From Parcubacteria group bacterium M10-OD1-1 (lineage in GTDB: Bacteria > Patescibacteriota > Minisyncoccia > Moranbacterales > UBA2206): a stretch of 64,000 nt of DNA. The DNA lies in NCBI GenBank assembly GCA_003056145.1, contig LSNL01000001.1:73351-137350 (forward strand), in the 5' to 3' direction. The notes below the pieces were generated by a model. The model ran no database searches and was not told the DNA's origin. It saw only the letters and a list, made by a program, of their open reading frames with translations. The translations under genes were made by a program, and so were the position numbers. The number at the start of each line of letters is the position of its first letter. Position 1 is the stretch's first letter. This document shows positions 6,257 through 12,066 of the stretch, piece after piece.

Positions 6257-7105
6257 TTATTTTTTAGTTAGCAGTCTAGTTGCAATAAGTGTATTTTTCA
6301 TAAGCATTGCAATCGTCATAGGTCCAACTCCTCCAGGAACCGGAGTTATAGCTTTTGCAACTTTCGAAACTTTTTGGAAGTCAACATCTCCAACTAGTTT
6401 GCCATTTTCATCTCGGTTCATTCCAACATCAATAACTATCGCTCCTAATTTTACCATATCTCTAGTTATGAGTTTTGCTTTCCCAGTGGCGGAAATCAAG
6501 ATATCTGCTTTTAAACATTCTTCTTTTAGTTGTTTAGTTTTATTATTACAAAGTGTGACCGTTGCTTCTAAATTGGACAACATAATAGCTAGAGGTTTTC
6601 CAATAATATTACTACTTCCCACAATAACACAGGCTGAACCTGCAATTTTTACTCCGTATATTTTGAGTATTTCTAAAATTCCTAATGGAGTGCATGGATA
6701 AAAATCACTTTCTCCTATTATCACTTTGCCTATATTTCTTGGATGGAAACAATCAACATCTTTTTTTGGGTTAATTGATTCAATTATATTTTCCTCATTG
6801 ATGTGACTTGGTAGTGGTAATTGAATTAGTATTCCGTGAATTTTTTCATTATTATTTAATTTCTTAATTAAATTAAGAAGATCTGCTTCTGTTGTTTTCT
6901 CTGCTAAGCGATACATCGTAGAAATTATCCCTAATTCTTGACAGGATTGTTCTTTGTTTCGAACATAAATGTTAGAAGCTGGATCATTACCAACTAGAAT
7001 CACGGACAGGCTTGGTTGAATATTATCTTTTTTCATAGATAAAACTTCCCGAAGAAAATCCTTTTTGATATTTTGGGCTATTTTTTTTCCATCAATAATA
7101 TTCAT
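6257..7105 (-). CDS. folD: Bifunctional 5,10-methylene-THF dehydrogenase / methenyl-THF cyclohydrolase
   Basis: Conserved FolD blocks: VILVGNDPASNIYVRNKEQSC, HGILIQLPLP, GSACVIVGSSNIIGKPLAIML and PVPGGVGPMT. Confidence 0.9.
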   Translation of the reverse strand: MNIIDGKKIAQNIKKDFLREVLSMKKDNIQPSLSVILVGNDPASNIYVRNKEQSCQELGIISTMYRLAEKTTEADLLNLIKKLNNNEKIHGILIQLPLPSHINEENIIESINPKKDVDCFHPRNIGKVIIGESDFYPCTPLGILEILKIYGVKIAGSACVIVGSSNIIGKPLAIMLSNLEATVTLCNNKTKQLKEECLKADILISATGKAKLITRDMVKLGAIVIDVGMNRDENGKLVGDVDFQKVSKVAKAITPVPGGVGPMTIAMLMKNTLIATRLLTKK

Positions 7106-7353: not shown

Positions 7354-8868
7354 TTATTTTACCCAATATTTTCCTTTTGTTTTTTTGTCATCTTCTTTCT
7401 TTTTTTCTTTTATTTTCTTTTTAGCAACTTCATCTAAGTCCTCTAAATTATTTTTATCTTGAAGTTCTTCAACACGTTTCAAGAGTTTTTCTTTACTATT
7501 TAACTTTGGTTCGTCGATTACTTCCGCAAGCAGTACATCTAAAATATTGCCAATTATTGGTCCAGGTTTTATAGCTAGTTCTTTTATTAGGTCGTTACCG
7601 TTTATTTTTAATTGTTTTACTGACAAAGGGTCTTTGGAAACTTTTTCTACCATATATTTAAAATGTCGGAGTTTATAGGGAATAGCTTTTGCCACTCCAC
7701 TCCCCAATCGATCCCCAATTCGGACATCAATCAAGTCATTGATATTATCCAATCCAACTTTAGTTATAACTTTTCTTACGCCTTTTTCTCCAACTTCTTC
7801 TACATTATAATAAAACATATGATTTTTAACCAAAAGAACTGTTTTGTCAGTTATTTTTTTCGGGAATTTCAGCCTTTCCATAATTGTTTTTGTTATTTTT
7901 GCACCGATATATTCATGACCATAAAATGTTGCAAACTCTCCTTTTCCTCTTTTAGCTTTTGGTTTTCCAATATCATGAAGAAATGCTGCTAAACGTACTT
8001 CTAGTTTTTCCGACGGACAAGTTTTAAGAGCTGCTAATAGATGTTTATAGACAGTATTGAAGGGACCATAATAATGATGTCGGTTTTGTGTCACGTCAAT
8101 AGTAGTGGAAATTTCTGGAATGATATTTTCCATAAGTCCAGTTTCAACTAAGAGCTTAATTCCCTCAGCTGGACGATTAGAAATAATGATTTTTTCTAGT
8201 TCATCTCGAATTCTTTCCGCAGATACATATTTTAATAAGTCCTTATGTTTTTTGATAGCGGTCAAAGTTTTTTCTTCAATTTTAAAATTAAGTTGAACAG
8301 AAAATCTAATAGCACGCAACATCCTTAAGGCATCTTCATTAAATCTTTCATCTGGATTTCCAACAGCTCTAATTAGTCGTTTAGCTAAATCTTTTTGACC
8401 ATCAAATAAATCGATTAGTGTGTAGTCATAAGACGCTTTTGCTTCAGCGGAAGGAATAATTTGCAAGGCTAAGGCATTAATTGTAAAATCTCGCCTAGAT
8501 AAATCTTCGGTTAAGGTTTGAGCAAATTTTATTTGGTCTGGGTGTCGTTTGTCGCTGTAGGTAGACTCAATTCTATAAGTCGTTACTTCAATAATATCGT
8601 ATTCTCGTTCAGCTAAACCTTTTTTTAAGAAAGGAATTACTTTTACTCCTACAGTCCCAAACTTATTTTCATAAAAACTGTTAGGAAATTTTTTTAAAAG
8701 TTCTTTTGGTTGAGCATTGGTTGTAATATCCCAATCATTTGGTTCACTTAAATTTGAATCTTTCATAACTAAAAATCGTACGCAACCACCTACTATATAG
8801 GCTTCAAATCCAGCTTTTTCGATTGTTTGGAGTACCTCAATTACTTGAGAAGGAATTTTTTGAATCAT
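7354..8868 (-). CDS. cca: CCA-adding enzyme / tRNA nucleotidyltransferase with HD domain and K/E/D-rich tail
   Basis: N-terminal GFEAYIVGGCVRFLVM (poly(A) polymerase/CCA head motif GGxVRD), then an HD motif LHDIGKP. Charged low-complexity C-terminus. Confidence 0.8.
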   Translation of the reverse strand: MIQKIPSQVIEVLQTIEKAGFEAYIVGGCVRFLVMKDSNLSEPNDWDITTNAQPKELLKKFPNSFYENKFGTVGVKVIPFLKKGLAEREYDIIEVTTYRIESTYSDKRHPDQIKFAQTLTEDLSRRDFTINALALQIIPSAEAKASYDYTLIDLFDGQKDLAKRLIRAVGNPDERFNEDALRMLRAIRFSVQLNFKIEEKTLTAIKKHKDLLKYVSAERIRDELEKIIISNRPAEGIKLLVETGLMENIIPEISTTIDVTQNRHHYYGPFNTVYKHLLAALKTCPSEKLEVRLAAFLHDIGKPKAKRGKGEFATFYGHEYIGAKITKTIMERLKFPKKITDKTVLLVKNHMFYYNVEEVGEKGVRKVITKVGLDNINDLIDVRIGDRLGSGVAKAIPYKLRHFKYMVEKVSKDPLSVKQLKINGNDLIKELAIKPGPIIGNILDVLLAEVIDEPKLNSKEKLLKRVEELQDKNNLEDLDEVAKKKIKEKKKEDDKKTKGKYWVK

Positions 8869-8954: not shown

Positions 8955-9494
8955 TTTATTATGGGTGATTGTTATGCAAGACTTAATAAATGTTAACATA
9001 AATAATCTAAAATTAAAAGAAAAATCATTAAAGTCCTGAAGATAAATTTATAATTATTATATAAATAAACCTACCGATATTGTTTATCTTTAAAGGAAAT
9101 TTTATTTTTTAATTCCTAATATTTTTTATAAAATAATTAATTTGTGAATAACTAAATCTATTTACTGTGAAAGTTAGTTTTCTTTTGAAAAAAGAAAACT
9201 AACTAATTTAATATAAAAAGGTCTCAGTTACATTATAAAAAATTAAAAGTAGCCTAATTTAAATAAATCTAGCTATAAAATTACATAATAAGTAAAGTTC
9301 AGTTTAAAAATAAGGTCTCTCCTTAAGTTGGACGTTTTGCTTAAATAATTTATTTTTAAATAAAAAATATATTTGATCAATAAAGCTTAGTATTAAGGTA
9401 AAATATTGGTTAAGTTTTTTTAAATATGTTGTAGATAGGCTTTTCATGAAAAGATTTTTGTGGTGAAATACTAACAATACTCGAACCTATTTTG

Positions 9495-9678
9495 AAAAAA
9501 ACAACTAACAAATCGGAACATGCCTCGGTGCACCTTCGCATTGTTTTGTCTGCGAACGAAGTTTGCCTTGGTAAGGATATTGTAATCCGAGCGCGAACTT
9601 ATTTCGAGAACAATAGCTAGGAAGCGGAACGCTTCGCGTACTTTTTCTCGCGCTCTGCGAGCGTGAAGTTTTAATTTG
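9495..9678 (-). ncRNA. Candidate structured ncRNA (unidentified), GC-rich island immediately 3' of tRNA-Ala
   Basis: ~185 nt at ~50% GC in a ~28% GC background. Nested perfect hairpins: cgctc-tgc-gagcg, gaagcg-gaa-cgcttc, ttcgca-N10-tgcgaa, and the self-complementary ggtgcacc. The minus-strand sense ends in a U-run. Family and strand unresolved. Confidence 0.35.
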
Positions 9679-9751
9679 TGGACCTGAGGAGATTCGAACT
9701 CCTGACCTCTTCCATGCCATGGAAGCGCTCTACCAACTAAGCTACAGGCCC
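9679..9751 (-). tRNA. tRNA-Ala (GGC)
   Basis: Reverse complement GGGCCTGTAGCTTAGTTGGTAGAGCG-CTTCC-ATGGCAT-GGAAG-AGGTC-AGGAGTTCGAATCTCCT-CAGGTCC-A. G3:U70 Ala identity pair present. Confidence 0.8.
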
Positions 9752-10035
9752 ATCTTCTTTAGCATAAAAAATATAATAACTTCAGTCAAGAGCCTAAAAG
9801 TATAAGAAAGTTAAGTAAATTATGATTTTTACTTTGAGCTAAAAAACTGTTTAAAAAGAAGCAATGTGATATAATGAAATTAGTTTAAAAAAGAATTTTT
9901 TTATTAAGTAGTAGCAGAAATTAAATAAATAATAGGTTATAAGTTACCGAATAGAGGAAGGTCCAGTCTATTGGAATAAGGACTAGTATTAGTAAAGAAT
10001 AGAAATAGACTAAAAAATTTAAACAGAAATATATA

Positions 10036-12066
10036 ATGAGTGTCTCTAATTTTTTAAATAAACTTAAAACTAAACCAGATATATGGTTCTTTTCGGTTTT
10101 TTTATTGACTTTTACTCTTAATATTAGAAAAGTATTATTTTACTTTCCTCAACAAGGAACATTTAATGAATATACTGGAATATATGTTTATATGTCAGAT
10201 ATATTCTTATTATTAACCATAGGTTTATGGTTAATATCATTATATTACAATAATATATTTAAATTGTCAAGGGATAAGCTGTGGATAACTTATTTTTTCT
10301 CTAAAAAATATCTAATAATCCCCTTAGCTCTAGTTATATGGTCATTTATATCTATTTTTTGGTCTAGCTATCAGTCCATAGCTTTTTTTAGATCAATAAA
10401 GCTATTGGAATTTTACTTACTTTACTTATATGTAATTTTTAGATTTAGTCCTTTTTTCTTTATTAAACAAGACTATGATAATAAAATAAAGGAAGGGGAA
10501 AAAATATTAGAAGTTAACCAATTGAATGTACTGAAAAATGTTCCACGTGGAACATTTTTTAATTTTAAATATAAAGAAATAATCCGATATTTCTTTCTGA
10601 CGATTGTTGGTATAAGTGTAATTCAATCAATTATTGCCATTAATCAGGTAATTATTCAAAAATCAGTGGGTTTAGGCGCTTTGAGAGAAAGTTTTATATC
10701 TCCTAGCTTACCAGGAGTAGCTAAAGTGATTTTAGGAGGAGATAAATATATTAGAGCTTATGGTTTAATGCCTCATCCTAATATTTTAGGTGGTTTTTTG
10801 TTGTTTTCAATAGTAATAAGTCTACTCTACTTAAAATTGTTCCACGTGGAACAATTCGCTTTTGTTGAAAAAGGCGGGATGGCTTCAAAAAAGGATGGAA
10901 GTAAAAGTAATAGACTTGTCGGATTGAAAATGTTCCACGTGGAACATTTTCAAAAGAAAAGTAGTTTTTTTAACTCAGTAATGTTCCACGTGGAACATTT
11001 TAAGAAAAAATATTTTTCACCGCCTTCGTCTCAAGAACAAATTGTTCCACGTGGAACAATTTTAAGTAAAATCTGGCATGTAGTTAGATGGCGAGGTATG
11101 ATGAAAGTATGTTTTTTAGATAGCTACATTTTTATTAAAAAGTTTGTTAAAAAAGATAAATGGCTTATTAAAGCCTTTATTTTAATTCAAGTCCTAGCTC
11201 TTTTTTTAAGTTTCTCCAAATCGGCAATTATAGGTTTAGTTATTTCTTTAATTTATATTGTATATAAATTAAATGTTCCACGTGGAACATTTATATTGCA
11301 ATGGAAAAAAATAAGATTAGTAACTAGCTTAAGATATTTTCGCATATCAATACTGATGATATTAGTGATATGTTCCTTTATAATAATATTTCTAAAGCCA
11401 GATTTTAATACTGTATTTTTTCAATCATTACGAGAACGTTTATTTTATCTAAATGTTTCACGTGGAACAATTTTAAGTAGTCCGATTTTGGGAATTGGAT
11501 CAGGACAATTTGTGATAAATATCCCTTATTTCTCCCAAAATGTTGTTTTGCCTTGGGAATATCAACCAGTGCATAATGTTTTTCTACTGGTTTGGAGCGA
11601 ATTAGGAATAATTGGAGTAGTTTTGTTTTCTTGGTTTATTTTAAAATTGTTCCACGTGGAACAATTTAATTTGCTTAAAAAAGATAACTTAACTTCAAAG
11701 AAAGATGAAAATAAAAATAAAAAGTTCCTCGGATTAAAAATGTTCCACGTGGAACATTTTGAGAAAAAAGAATCATTATTGCATGTAGTTAAAGAGACAA
11801 TTGTTCCACGTGGAACAAATGAACATTTTGAAAAAAATAGGAATAAAGAAATTAATAGTATAGCTAAAAGAAACAAGAAAGATAATATATTATACAATAA
11901 GAATAGATATTTGTCAATGAATTATCTTCTTATTTATTTTCAGGGAATATTATTGGGTTTCGTTTTTATTATGCTTTTTGACCATTATTTGTGGGATATT
12001 CAGCAAGGTAGCGTCTTGTTTTGGCTAGTTTGCGGATTTATTGTTGGAAATAAGAAAGTGTGTTAA
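10036..12066 (+). CDS. O-antigen-ligase-like membrane protein carrying ten in-frame palindromic insertions and an internal duplication
   Basis: 676-aa uninterrupted ORF. N-terminus is polytopic membrane. Ligase motifs appear twice (MPHPNILGGFLLFS…LYLKLFHVEQF and PVHNVFLLVWSELGIIGVV…FILKLFHVEQF). The C-terminus resembles the neighbouring ligase paralogs. Confidence 0.5.
   Translation: MSVSNFLNKLKTKPDIWFFSVFLLTFTLNIRKVLFYFPQQGTFNEYTGIYVYMSDIFLLLTIGLWLISLYYNNIFKLSRDKLWITYFFSKKYLIIPLALVIWSFISIFWSSYQSIAFFRSIKLLEFYLLYLYVIFRFSPFFFIKQDYDNKIKEGEKILEVNQLNVLKNVPRGTFFNFKYKEIIRYFFLTIVGISVIQSIIAINQVIIQKSVGLGALRESFISPSLPGVAKVILGGDKYIRAYGLMPHPNILGGFLLFSIVISLLYLKLFHVEQFAFVEKGGMASKKDGSKSNRLVGLKMFHVEHFQKKSSFFNSVMFHVEHFKKKYFSPPSSQEQIVPRGTILSKIWHVVRWRGMMKVCFLDSYIFIKKFVKKDKWLIKAFILIQVLALFLSFSKSAIIGLVISLIYIVYKLNVPRGTFILQWKKIRLVTSLRYFRISILMILVICSFIIIFLKPDFNTVFFQSLRERLFYLNVSRGTILSSPILGIGSGQFVINIPYFSQNVVLPWEYQPVHNVFLLVWSELGIIGVVLFSWFILKLFHVEQFNLLKKDNLTSKKDENKNKKFLGLKMFHVEHFEKKESLLHVVKETIVPRGTNEHFEKNRNKEINSIAKRNKKDNILYNKNRYLSMNYLLIYFQGILLGFVFIMLFDHYLWDIQQGSVLFWLVCGFIVGNKKVC
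10534..11818. repeat. Ten dispersed copies of a 16-bp perfect palindrome TGTTCCACGTGGAACA inside one gene, often extended to 18-26 bp by A/T runs
   Basis: Cores at 10539, 10838, 10931, 10982, 11043, 11274, 11454 (variant gtttcac), 11648, 11741 and 11802. Spacing is irregular (59-300 bp). The palindrome has no stop in any frame, giving the peptide motifs VPRGT / FHVE(H/Q)F / CSTWN. Confidence 0.9.

Follow-up and report, generated by a model that had tools for sequence, protein, structure and literature searches.

A GC-rich block at the 3' end of tRNA-Ala(GGC) in a Parcubacteria genome is probably the scar of a serine-recombinase defence island

Mobile elements with large serine recombinases include Tn4451 (TnpX), Tn5397 (TndX), and SCCmec (Ccr). 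Islands integrated in tRNA or transfer-messenger RNA (tmRNA) genes regenerate the target gene and displace a 3' fragment of it, a logic set out in PMC4383910. Restriction-modification (R-M) units have been described together with an integrase in tRNA genes, where tRNA-3'-like repeats accompany them, and also between long inverted repeats (Furuta et al. 2010, PMC2853133). For Patescibacteria, R-M-bearing islands are reported in general terms (PMC12455944). Here, we analysed a GC-rich block (positions 9495-9678) in a 64,000-nt stretch of Parcubacteria group bacterium M10-OD1-1 (contig LSNL01000001.1, positions 73,351 to 137,350; hereafter the window, in whose coordinates all positions are given). 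Homologues of the neighbouring genes assign the window to Candidatus Moraniibacteriota in the Patescibacteria. The block lies on the 3' side of tRNA-Ala(GGC), on the tRNA's own strand, and its neighbours are this tRNA, a Wzy_C-like gene, tRNA-Arg, and the CCA-adding enzyme gene. We conclude that it is probably a scar of mobile DNA, the truncated and duplicated leftover of an end module of a serine-recombinase defence island.

Homologues were sought by scanning metagenome contigs with a 19-mer from the block, GGAAGCGGAACGCTTCGCG (9620-9638). We examined 80 of the 86 stretches returned; most were chance matches in high-GC DNA, and 13 were low-GC contigs (31-42%) with extended similarity to the block. 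These contigs (designated here by L and a number) carry a discrete module of ~255 nt, which we named E and which is 82-100% identical between contigs with unrelated flanks. The family was enlarged by searching a protein database with a spurious open reading frame (ORF), whose 8 matches yielded four useful contexts. A family profile hidden Markov model (HMM), built from ten full copies and run with nhmmer, matched window positions 9575-9662 to HMM positions 12-103 (E=1.4e-15, 56.4 bits). The homologous region begins at ~9455-9474, about 20-40 nt to the left of the start given in an earlier note on this DNA, and in the 64-kb window E was found at this single locus. In L174, E is ~87% identical, whereas ribosomal protein L19 of the same host is only 48% identical to that of the window. 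E is thus far better conserved than the host genes, indicating that it travels horizontally.

Alignment with the E variants of L091 and L176 resolved the region into two tandem partial copies in the same orientation, A and B (Table 1). Copy B is 86% identical to L091 over 100 nt and 78.6% identical to L176 over 112 nt. It lacks the inner 150 nt of E, including a long hairpin, and retains the invariant block described below. Copy A was detected by nhmmer in the spacer both with the family HMM (HMM 23-82 at 9474-9532, E=3.8e-4) and with L176a (9455-9533, E=4.6e-5); blastn aligned it with L176a at 81.6% identity over 38 nt, AACTAACAAATCGGAA being common to both. A variant of hairpin 2 (9520-9541) that contains GGTGCACC and an equivalent of hairpin 3, TTCGCA...TGCGAA (9535-9556), can be recognized in copy A. 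Plain self-alignment of the block made the internal duplication only weakly significant (8/500 shuffles), and it became convincing through the comparison with L176a and L176b. Both copies point as tRNA-Ala does and start right at its 3' end, which is followed directly by the remnant array. The match to E stops at HMM position 103 and the tRNA begins 13 nt later; the window therefore holds a fragment of E and no full member. Both the long hairpin of the inner part (E ~130-253) and the -35 box of the promoter of a helix-turn-helix (HTH) gene are missing. The GC content falls away from the tRNA, from 50.5% in copy B to 40% in copy A and 19% beyond.

Table 1. Features of the block and its surroundings in window coordinates.
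Feature	Position	Strand	Remarks
AT-rich remainder of the tRNA-Ala / tRNA-Arg spacer	8955..9473		19% GC; no ORF, no recognisable homologue
Copy A	~9474..9557	+	E positions ~20-100; more decayed or diverged than copy B
U7 run on the tRNA strand inside copy A	9494..9500	-	Corresponds to the conserved A/T run of E (GAACTTTTTTTGAAG)
Palindrome GGTGCACC	9527-9534		
Copy B	9565..9665	+	E positions ~1-105 of ~255; L091/L176a-like variant
tRNA-3'-end-like terminus of copy B	9569..9599	-	AGTTCGCGCTCGGATTACAATATCCTTACCA: GTTCG, ~20 nt, CCA; corresponds to AGTTCGGATTTCGTCCAAAAGGTACCGCCA in the E consensus
Hairpin or palindrome GGATATTGTAATCC	9575-9588		
Invariant block TAGGAAGCGGAACGCTTCGCGT in copy B	9618..9639		Stem 9621-9626 / 9630-9635; identical in every family copy examined
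Hairpin GAAGCG-GAA-CGCTTC	9621-9635		
Hairpin 3 in copy B (TCGCGCTC-TGC-GAGCGTGA)	9648..9666		Sequence of its own, 3-nt loop
tRNA/copy B junction	9665..9677		GAAGTTTTAATTT; on the tRNA strand AAATTAAAACTTC
tRNA-Ala(GGC)	9678..9751	-	ARAGORN; Rfam tRNA, 67.5 bits at 9679-9751

Two hairpins of E behave differently across 12 distinct copies. Hairpin 2 is a palindromic block of 22 nt, TAGGAAGCGGAACGCTTCGCGT, whose six pairs, loop, and flanking bases are all invariant; it looks like a candidate protein-binding DNA site. In hairpin 3, six of the seven pairs have changed on both sides and are still paired, with a covariation of 0.19 versus 0.088 in shuffled alignments (0/500), which indicates that its structure matters, at the level of RNA or of single-stranded DNA. 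The outer ~30 nt of E resemble a tRNA 3' end (GTTCG ... CCA). On the strand equivalent to the minus strand of the window, this end reads AGTTCGGATTTCGTCCAAAAGGTACCGCCA and aligns with the part of tRNA-Ala from the T loop to the 3' end. The outer E end of L097b with its flank scored 39 against the 3' half of tRNA-Ala plus trailer, compared with 16.7 +/- 3.2 for shuffled sequences (0/1000); for the E end of L107 alone, 17 of 1000 shuffles scored as high, and for the end of copy B in the window, 12 of 1000. On the tRNA strand, each window copy ends in such a GTTCG...CCA segment in the same orientation as tRNA-Ala. These segments are degenerate and derive from the E consensus, not from tRNA-Ala itself. 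Outside E, the junctions are pseudo-palindromic around AATT, being CAATTG, or CAAATTTG where E meets tRNA-Ser. The junction between tRNA-Ala and copy B has the same form as GAAGTTTCAATTGG, found between units in L097b and L159, and as GAAGTTTGCCTTGG (9558-9571), which separates copies A and B.

Elsewhere, the sequence contexts of E suggest integrative islands in Patescibacteria, with the order tRNA-Ser, large serine recombinase, O (~260 nt), E (~255 nt), HTH_3 gene, and defence cargo. The recombinase carries the Pfam domains Resolvase, Recombinase, and Zn_ribbon_recom. Its homologues number in the thousands, most of those with an organism name being named Parcubacteria, Patescibacteria, Paceibacterota, Minisyncoccia, or Giovannonibacteria. 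The recombinase gene runs with its 3' end into a tRNA-Ser gene in L149, L179, L180, and L181, and E directly touches tRNA-Ser in L097 and L138. O is a hairpin-rich spacer between E and the divergently oriented recombinase gene (L149, L107, L118, L150, L177, and L181). On its inner side, E borders a promoter-like site whose -35 box falls within the last bases of E. Directly inside E lie the HTH_3 (Cro/C1-type) gene and R-M or other defence cargo (L097, L091, L175, L176, L177, and L181). The cargo consists of Dcm, an HpaII-type endonuclease, and a helicase in L097, two N6/N4 methyltransferases and a 700-aa protein in L094, a McrB-like AAA_5 gene in L175, MmeI/Eco57I-type genes in L176, RadC and a D12 methyltransferase in L177, and a LexA-Dcm fusion with an endonuclease in L091. 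A second E, inverted and non-identical, closes the cargo in L097, L094, and L175; in L176, two E copies stand back to back. The order host tRNAs, tRNA-Ser, recombinase, O, E, and HTH was found on one contig, L181. At the window locus, O, the HTH gene, and cargo are absent, and tblastn found no remnant of a recombinase in the 64 kb.

Many of the E copies among the metagenome matches sit at contig ends. Long contigs with the recombinase likewise end upstream of its start, inside O or E, at 250-385 nt in one comparison and at 250-750 nt over L178, L179, L180, and L181 (13-110 kb). Breaks at this place are expected, because E behaves as an assembly-breaking repeat. In L178 (~100-375 and ~1790-1944), and also in L179 and L180, inverted copies of part of O bracket the recombinase gene, one upstream of it and the other at its 3' end, which in L179 and L180 lies beside tRNA-Ser. 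This suggests an inverted duplicate of the attachment (att) region.

We then compared the locus with those of relatives, as the earlier note had proposed. The gene order tRNA-Ala(GGC), tRNA-Arg(CCT), CCA-adding enzyme is kept in many Moranbacteria-like genomes. Where synteny is shared, the gap between the two tRNAs is mostly 11-82 nt, versus 723 nt in the window, and some relatives have tRNA-Val(CAC) and tRNA-Ala(CGC), or other sequence, between them. The nearest relative in a collection of 5.8 billion proteins, with a CCA-adding enzyme 70% identical and extended synteny, has a spacer of 66 nt. The block had no blastn or nhmmer match in 80 CCA-enzyme loci and no blastn match in the loci of the two closest relatives, and the family HMM of E likewise had no match in the 80 loci. 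The only other assembly of the same organism is 99.98% identical. Since the block is absent from syntenic relatives and the spacer measures 723 nt, it is a lineage-specific insertion. Of the origins that the earlier note had considered, the one that gains support is thus the relic of an element integrated with the tRNA 3' end as its attachment site, both from this comparison and from the homology to an island end module.

A fortuitous GC-rich spacer, or the decayed remains of a tRNA-Val(CAC) / tRNA-Ala(CGC) pair, could also be considered as explanations of such a block. Six relatives have that pair at this very position, and ~185 nt is about the length of two tRNAs. Against the pair, ARAGORN at relaxed thresholds returned only junk, and the block showed no resemblance to the Val(CAC) and Ala(CGC) genes of the relatives. 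Because the block is homologous to sequences elsewhere (E=1.4e-15), both explanations are refuted within the reach of our tools, and we give them practically no weight. Other origins were also rejected. Two minus-strand frames are open across the block, but neither has a start codon or a match in Pfam or PHROGs, as would be looked for in a protein-gene relic. No blastn match was found in phage or plasmid collections, and the single match from three scans of viral contigs was apparently due to chance. No exact att-like direct repeats of the tRNA-Ala 3' end occur in the spacer.

Several further differences were seen in the same neighbourhood or at equivalent loci. The FolD gene (6257-7105, minus strand), between the CCA-enzyme gene and a 98-aa gene, is absent from that place in the closest syntenic relative, L082, and is a second lineage-specific difference. 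The AT-rich remainder of the spacer (8955-9473, 19.1% GC) gave only low-complexity matches in similarity searches; it is either spacer specific to this lineage or an insert that is older and has decayed. Within it stands a perfect inverted repeat of 15 bp, AGTTAGTTTTCTTTT GAA AAAAGAAAACTAACT (9172-9204), flagged as terminator-like. In two more distant relatives (L039 5655-5854 and L025 202-376), the spacer between tRNA-Ala(GGC) and tRNA-Arg(CCT) holds a common block of ~90 nt, TTTTTTGTCAAATCCT.CGT.ACT...GTAC...TTTTCCTTG; tried as a relative of E, it proved unrelated, and it also has no Rfam match. In the tRNA clusters of L003 (5207-5307) and L021 (4587-4644 and 4720-4985), spacers carry fragments resembling tRNAs (GCTTGTAGCTCAGT...) along with repeats of the motif CCCCGCAC; these may be remnants of other inserts or tRNA genes that have decayed. 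In L008, a Patescibacteria metagenome-assembled genome, a group I intron (Rfam RF00028, 90.3 bits; 7935-8150, plus strand) lies downstream of the CCA-enzyme gene.

The reading of the block as an island scar follows from its orientation, which fits the far-end E of the layout tRNA, recombinase, O, E, HTH-cargo, inverted E. The far-end E of this layout has its tRNA-like terminus in the orientation of the target tRNA, at the place where tRNA-integrated islands have the displaced 3' fragment (PMC4383910). At least one island of the E family, or several, would have integrated at the 3' end of tRNA-Ala(GGC), and internal deletion or recombination between E copies would then have removed all but the far-end fragments. 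The remaining fragments would have drifted towards the AT-rich composition of the genome, giving the present gradient of 50%, 40%, and 19% GC. The GC-rich island in a 19% GC spacer would accordingly be explained by foreign, mobile-element-derived DNA that is decaying. The AATT junction at the outer end of E would be the type of site used by a serine recombinase dimer, and the outer ~30 nt of E would be of the displaced tRNA 3' fragment type that marks the far end of an island. The data show the homology to E, the architecture of E elsewhere, the truncation and missing cargo in the window, and the absence of the block from relatives; integration at tRNA-Ala, the deletion history, and the lack of a present function are what we infer.

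A number of observations weigh against the scar reading. We recovered no island that was complete at its two ends together with an empty site, and for this reason att sites, and a role of the recombinase in mobilisation, can only be proposed. The target seen for the family is tRNA-Ser, not tRNA-Ala. Tandem units of ~110 nt are not expected from clean integration and excision, and because L097b and L159 also have similar partial units outside full E copies, the outer ~105 nt may be an independent unit. Copy B has kept a perfect 22-nt block, an intact hairpin 3, and 50% GC within a 19% GC spacer, which fits recent arrival and continued selection alike. The window copy is predicted to fold better on the plus strand, and full-length E on the opposite one, so that the folding models are contradictory as strand evidence for any RNA. 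Finally, other E copies and the recombinase were looked for in 64 kb of this genome.

The junctions also bear on whether the site could still be in use, that is, whether the fragments form a live landing pad whose half-sites (the tRNA-like end and the AATT junction) serve as a secondary attachment site for new islands or cargo swaps. The junctions at 9558-9571 and 9665-9677 match GAAGTTTCAATTGG beside full E copies, and the back-to-back or tandem arrangement in L176, L097b, and L159 shows that E ends tend to gather further copies. However, the window contains no recombinase, the sites are degenerate relative to the consensus, and with the sole other assembly 99.98% identical there are no polymorphic occupied and empty alleles. 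We consider a live landing pad very improbable.

The composition of the block had led the earlier note to describe it as an unidentified structured RNA. Its account of the sequence is largely borne out. The GC content does jump without a credible ORF: it is 44.6% over 9495-9678, against 19.1% in the rest of the spacer and 29.7% in the full window. The proposed value of about 50% is slightly too high for the whole interval and applies to the sub-block 9565-9665 (50.5%). A 71-aa minus-strand ORF, rightly dismissed as an artefact, spans 9505-9720 and begins within the tRNA; besides it, there is no ORF of at least 60 aa in the block or spacer, and six-frame translations of the block have no match in Pfam or PHROGs. 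The hairpins and the self-complementary sequence were all found where they had been placed. The headline itself was not established. Rfam 15, which includes 6S RNA, signal recognition particle (SRP) RNA, tmRNA, RNase P, riboswitches, ribozymes, and omega/HEARO RNAs, was searched with covariance models; at the gathering threshold, it matched only tRNAs in the window, and at E<=10 nothing meaningful over 9300-9900. No family thus matches the block, neither SRP RNA nor tmRNA, which the earlier note had not recognized by eye, nor 6S RNA, which it had left aside. ARAGORN found no tmRNA in the window, and full-length E copies also have no Rfam match. A leader or attenuator, another option raised there, is unsupported, because the next plus-strand gene is preceded by a promoter-like site of its own on the far side of the tRNA, which lies antisense in between.

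A functional structured RNA would require that the block, or E as a whole, be transcribed as a small RNA (sRNA). It might be the 3' trailer of tRNA-Ala, freed by RNase Z in the manner of the sRNAs of E. coli that derive from 3' external transcribed spacers (3'ETS), or an independent plus-strand sRNA ending at the 9648-9666 hairpin followed by UUUUAAUUU. In a genome rich in AT, a GC island is what a structured RNA classically looks like. The plus strand of the block folds at -56.1 kcal/mol, a modest z = -2.1 against shuffles, and several G.U pairs in this fold would be A/C mismatches on the other strand. Full-length E reaches z = -3.8 on one strand and contains a covarying hairpin, and a promoter-like site directly upstream of tRNA-Ala would carry transcription into the block on the minus strand. 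Against this stand the missing Rfam matches, the loss of the inner 60% of E with its long hairpin from the window copy, and the absence of the block from all syntenic relatives examined. Hairpin 2 is invariant rather than covarying, more like a protein-binding DNA palindrome, and no convincing plus-strand promoter was found. Moreover, the favoured strand is plus in the window copy (the tRNA strand folds at -47.2 kcal/mol, z = -0.8) and the equivalent of window minus in full-length E (z = -3.8 versus -2.7 on the other strand). An sRNA at this locus is, in our judgement, quite improbable.

sRNAs from tRNA 3' external transcribed spacers are exemplified by 3'ETS-leuZ of E. coli. The block resembles them, and intrinsic terminators, in being hairpin-rich sequence directly 3' of a tRNA without an encoded CCA. 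tRNA-Ala(GGC) carries the G3:U70 pair and no encoded CCA, and since the block follows it directly, any transcript reaching the block would probably be cleaved off; co-transcription with the tRNA is a predicted possibility. The block differs from such sRNAs in its foreign, mobile-element origin and its absence from relatives.

The hairpins could also serve as an exapted insulator or terminator, the remnant being kept because transcription is halted at its GC-rich hairpins and U-runs, which separate the tRNA-Ala unit from the unit of AT-rich spacer, tRNA-Arg, and CCA-adding enzyme. It would keep antisense transcripts from entering tRNA-Ala on the plus strand, and its U7 run on the minus strand would terminate transcription from tRNA-Ala. 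A toxic R-M operon in an intact island would likewise be shielded from outside transcription by the pair of E copies, which face inwards. The pattern of an intrinsic terminator, a hairpin with a U-run, occurs three times on the plus strand of the block, and five such sites were counted in a 1.4-kb region, where 0.3 are expected. Hairpin 2 with its U-rich tail was flagged as terminator-like in both E copies of L097, the covariation of hairpin 3 argues that structure matters, and copy B is still 50% GC. The U7 run, although without a tight hairpin, is on its sequence a possible stop for tRNA-Ala read-through, and a stop after tRNA-Ala is plausible because tRNA-Arg has its own promoter-like site. 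However, these sites are consensus matches alone, no plus-strand unit ends there, and no plus-strand gene within >2 kb upstream needs a stop. Relatives do with AT-rich spacers of 11-82 nt. The tail of hairpin 2 is a poor U-tract, hairpin 3 lacks a U-tract in most copies, and the typical terminators of this genome are long AT-rich stems, unlike the block. An insulator or terminator role is therefore unlikely in our view.

A broader possibility concerns the family as a whole. By analogy with IS110 bridge RNAs and the omega RNAs of TnpB and IscB, E and O might encode a structured non-coding RNA (ncRNA) that works with the large serine recombinase, specifying or regulating recombination at tRNA-like sites. 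Its functional core could be the tRNA-like 3' end with the invariant block. We regard this as a long shot. If it were true, the fusion of tRNA-Ala with the outer half of E in the window would be a natural chimera of such an RNA.

Of the systems introduced above, tRNA- and tmRNA-integrated islands (Islander/TIGER, PMC4383910; R-M plus integrase units, PMC2853133) are one of the kinds closest to the E family. It shares with them the location at tRNA genes, a recombinase at the tRNA-proximal edge, R-M or defence cargo, and tRNA-3'-end-like sequence at the distal end; the window correspondingly has an intact tRNA followed by element-derived DNA with same-orientation tRNA-3'-like fragments. It differs in having a large serine recombinase instead of the usual tyrosine integrase, and in a conserved, structured module of ~255 nt repeated in inverted orientation on either side of the cargo. 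The window in turn has neither integrase nor cargo, and its tRNA is Ala, not Ser. By the criterion used in Islander (PMC4383910), tRNA-Ala is intact and the degenerate tRNA-3'-like segments keep its orientation, with no exact direct repeat.

Inverted-repeat R-M units, such as mobile insertion cassettes and units flanked by miniature inverted-repeat transposable elements (MITEs; R-M cases in PMC2853133), are similar in that the cargo of L097, L094, and L175 is enclosed by two E copies in inverted orientation that are not perfectly identical, and no transposase lies between them. E also occurs elsewhere as solo or truncated copies, which is reminiscent of MITEs. In contrast to cassettes bounded by MITEs or insertion-sequence ends, the E repeats are ~255 nt long with conserved internal hairpins rather than short terminal inverted repeats, a target-site duplication could not be defined for E, the serine recombinase is encoded outside the inverted pair, and there is no sign of multiple copies in 64 kb of this genome.

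Like Tn4451/TnpX, Tn5397/TndX, and SCCmec/Ccr, compared here by Pfam domains, the E family has a Resolvase-Recombinase-Zn-ribbon enzyme at the edge of a cargo element and pseudo-palindromic junctions around a short AT core. To our knowledge, Tn4451, Tn5397, and SCCmec have no conserved hairpin module of 255 nt and no tRNA-like ends flanking the cargo. In the searchable literature, we found no description of the E module, of its arrangement as an inverted pair, or of its link to a serine recombinase that abuts tRNA-Ser. Searches on 6S RNA, structured RNAs, MITEs, and serine-recombinase islands in the Candidate Phyla Radiation (CPR) likewise gave nothing specific, only general reports of R-M islands. 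The E family thus appears to be undescribed.

One further repeat was noticed in the window, at some distance from the block. An ORF resembling Wzy_C/O-antigen ligase (10036-12066, plus strand) contains 10 copies of the palindrome GTTCCACGTGGAAC, where 0 are expected, and none occurs elsewhere in the 64 kb. In frame, the copies give MFHVEHF or VPRGT motifs, and the palindrome looks like an insertion repeat that colonises one gene.

The result removes the block as a candidate for a novel structured RNA. Read as a mobile-element scar at a tRNA gene, the window copy itself is an ordinary kind of thing, and the interest lies mainly in the E family. In Patescibacteria, E brackets cassettes of R-M and other defence genes, beside a large serine recombinase that is very widespread and whose gene abuts tRNA-Ser. 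If confirmed, E, at which assemblies break systematically, would serve in practice as a marker by which defence islands in CPR genomes can be found and delimited, and the family would offer a tractable system for studying the exchange of defence genes among tiny genomes.

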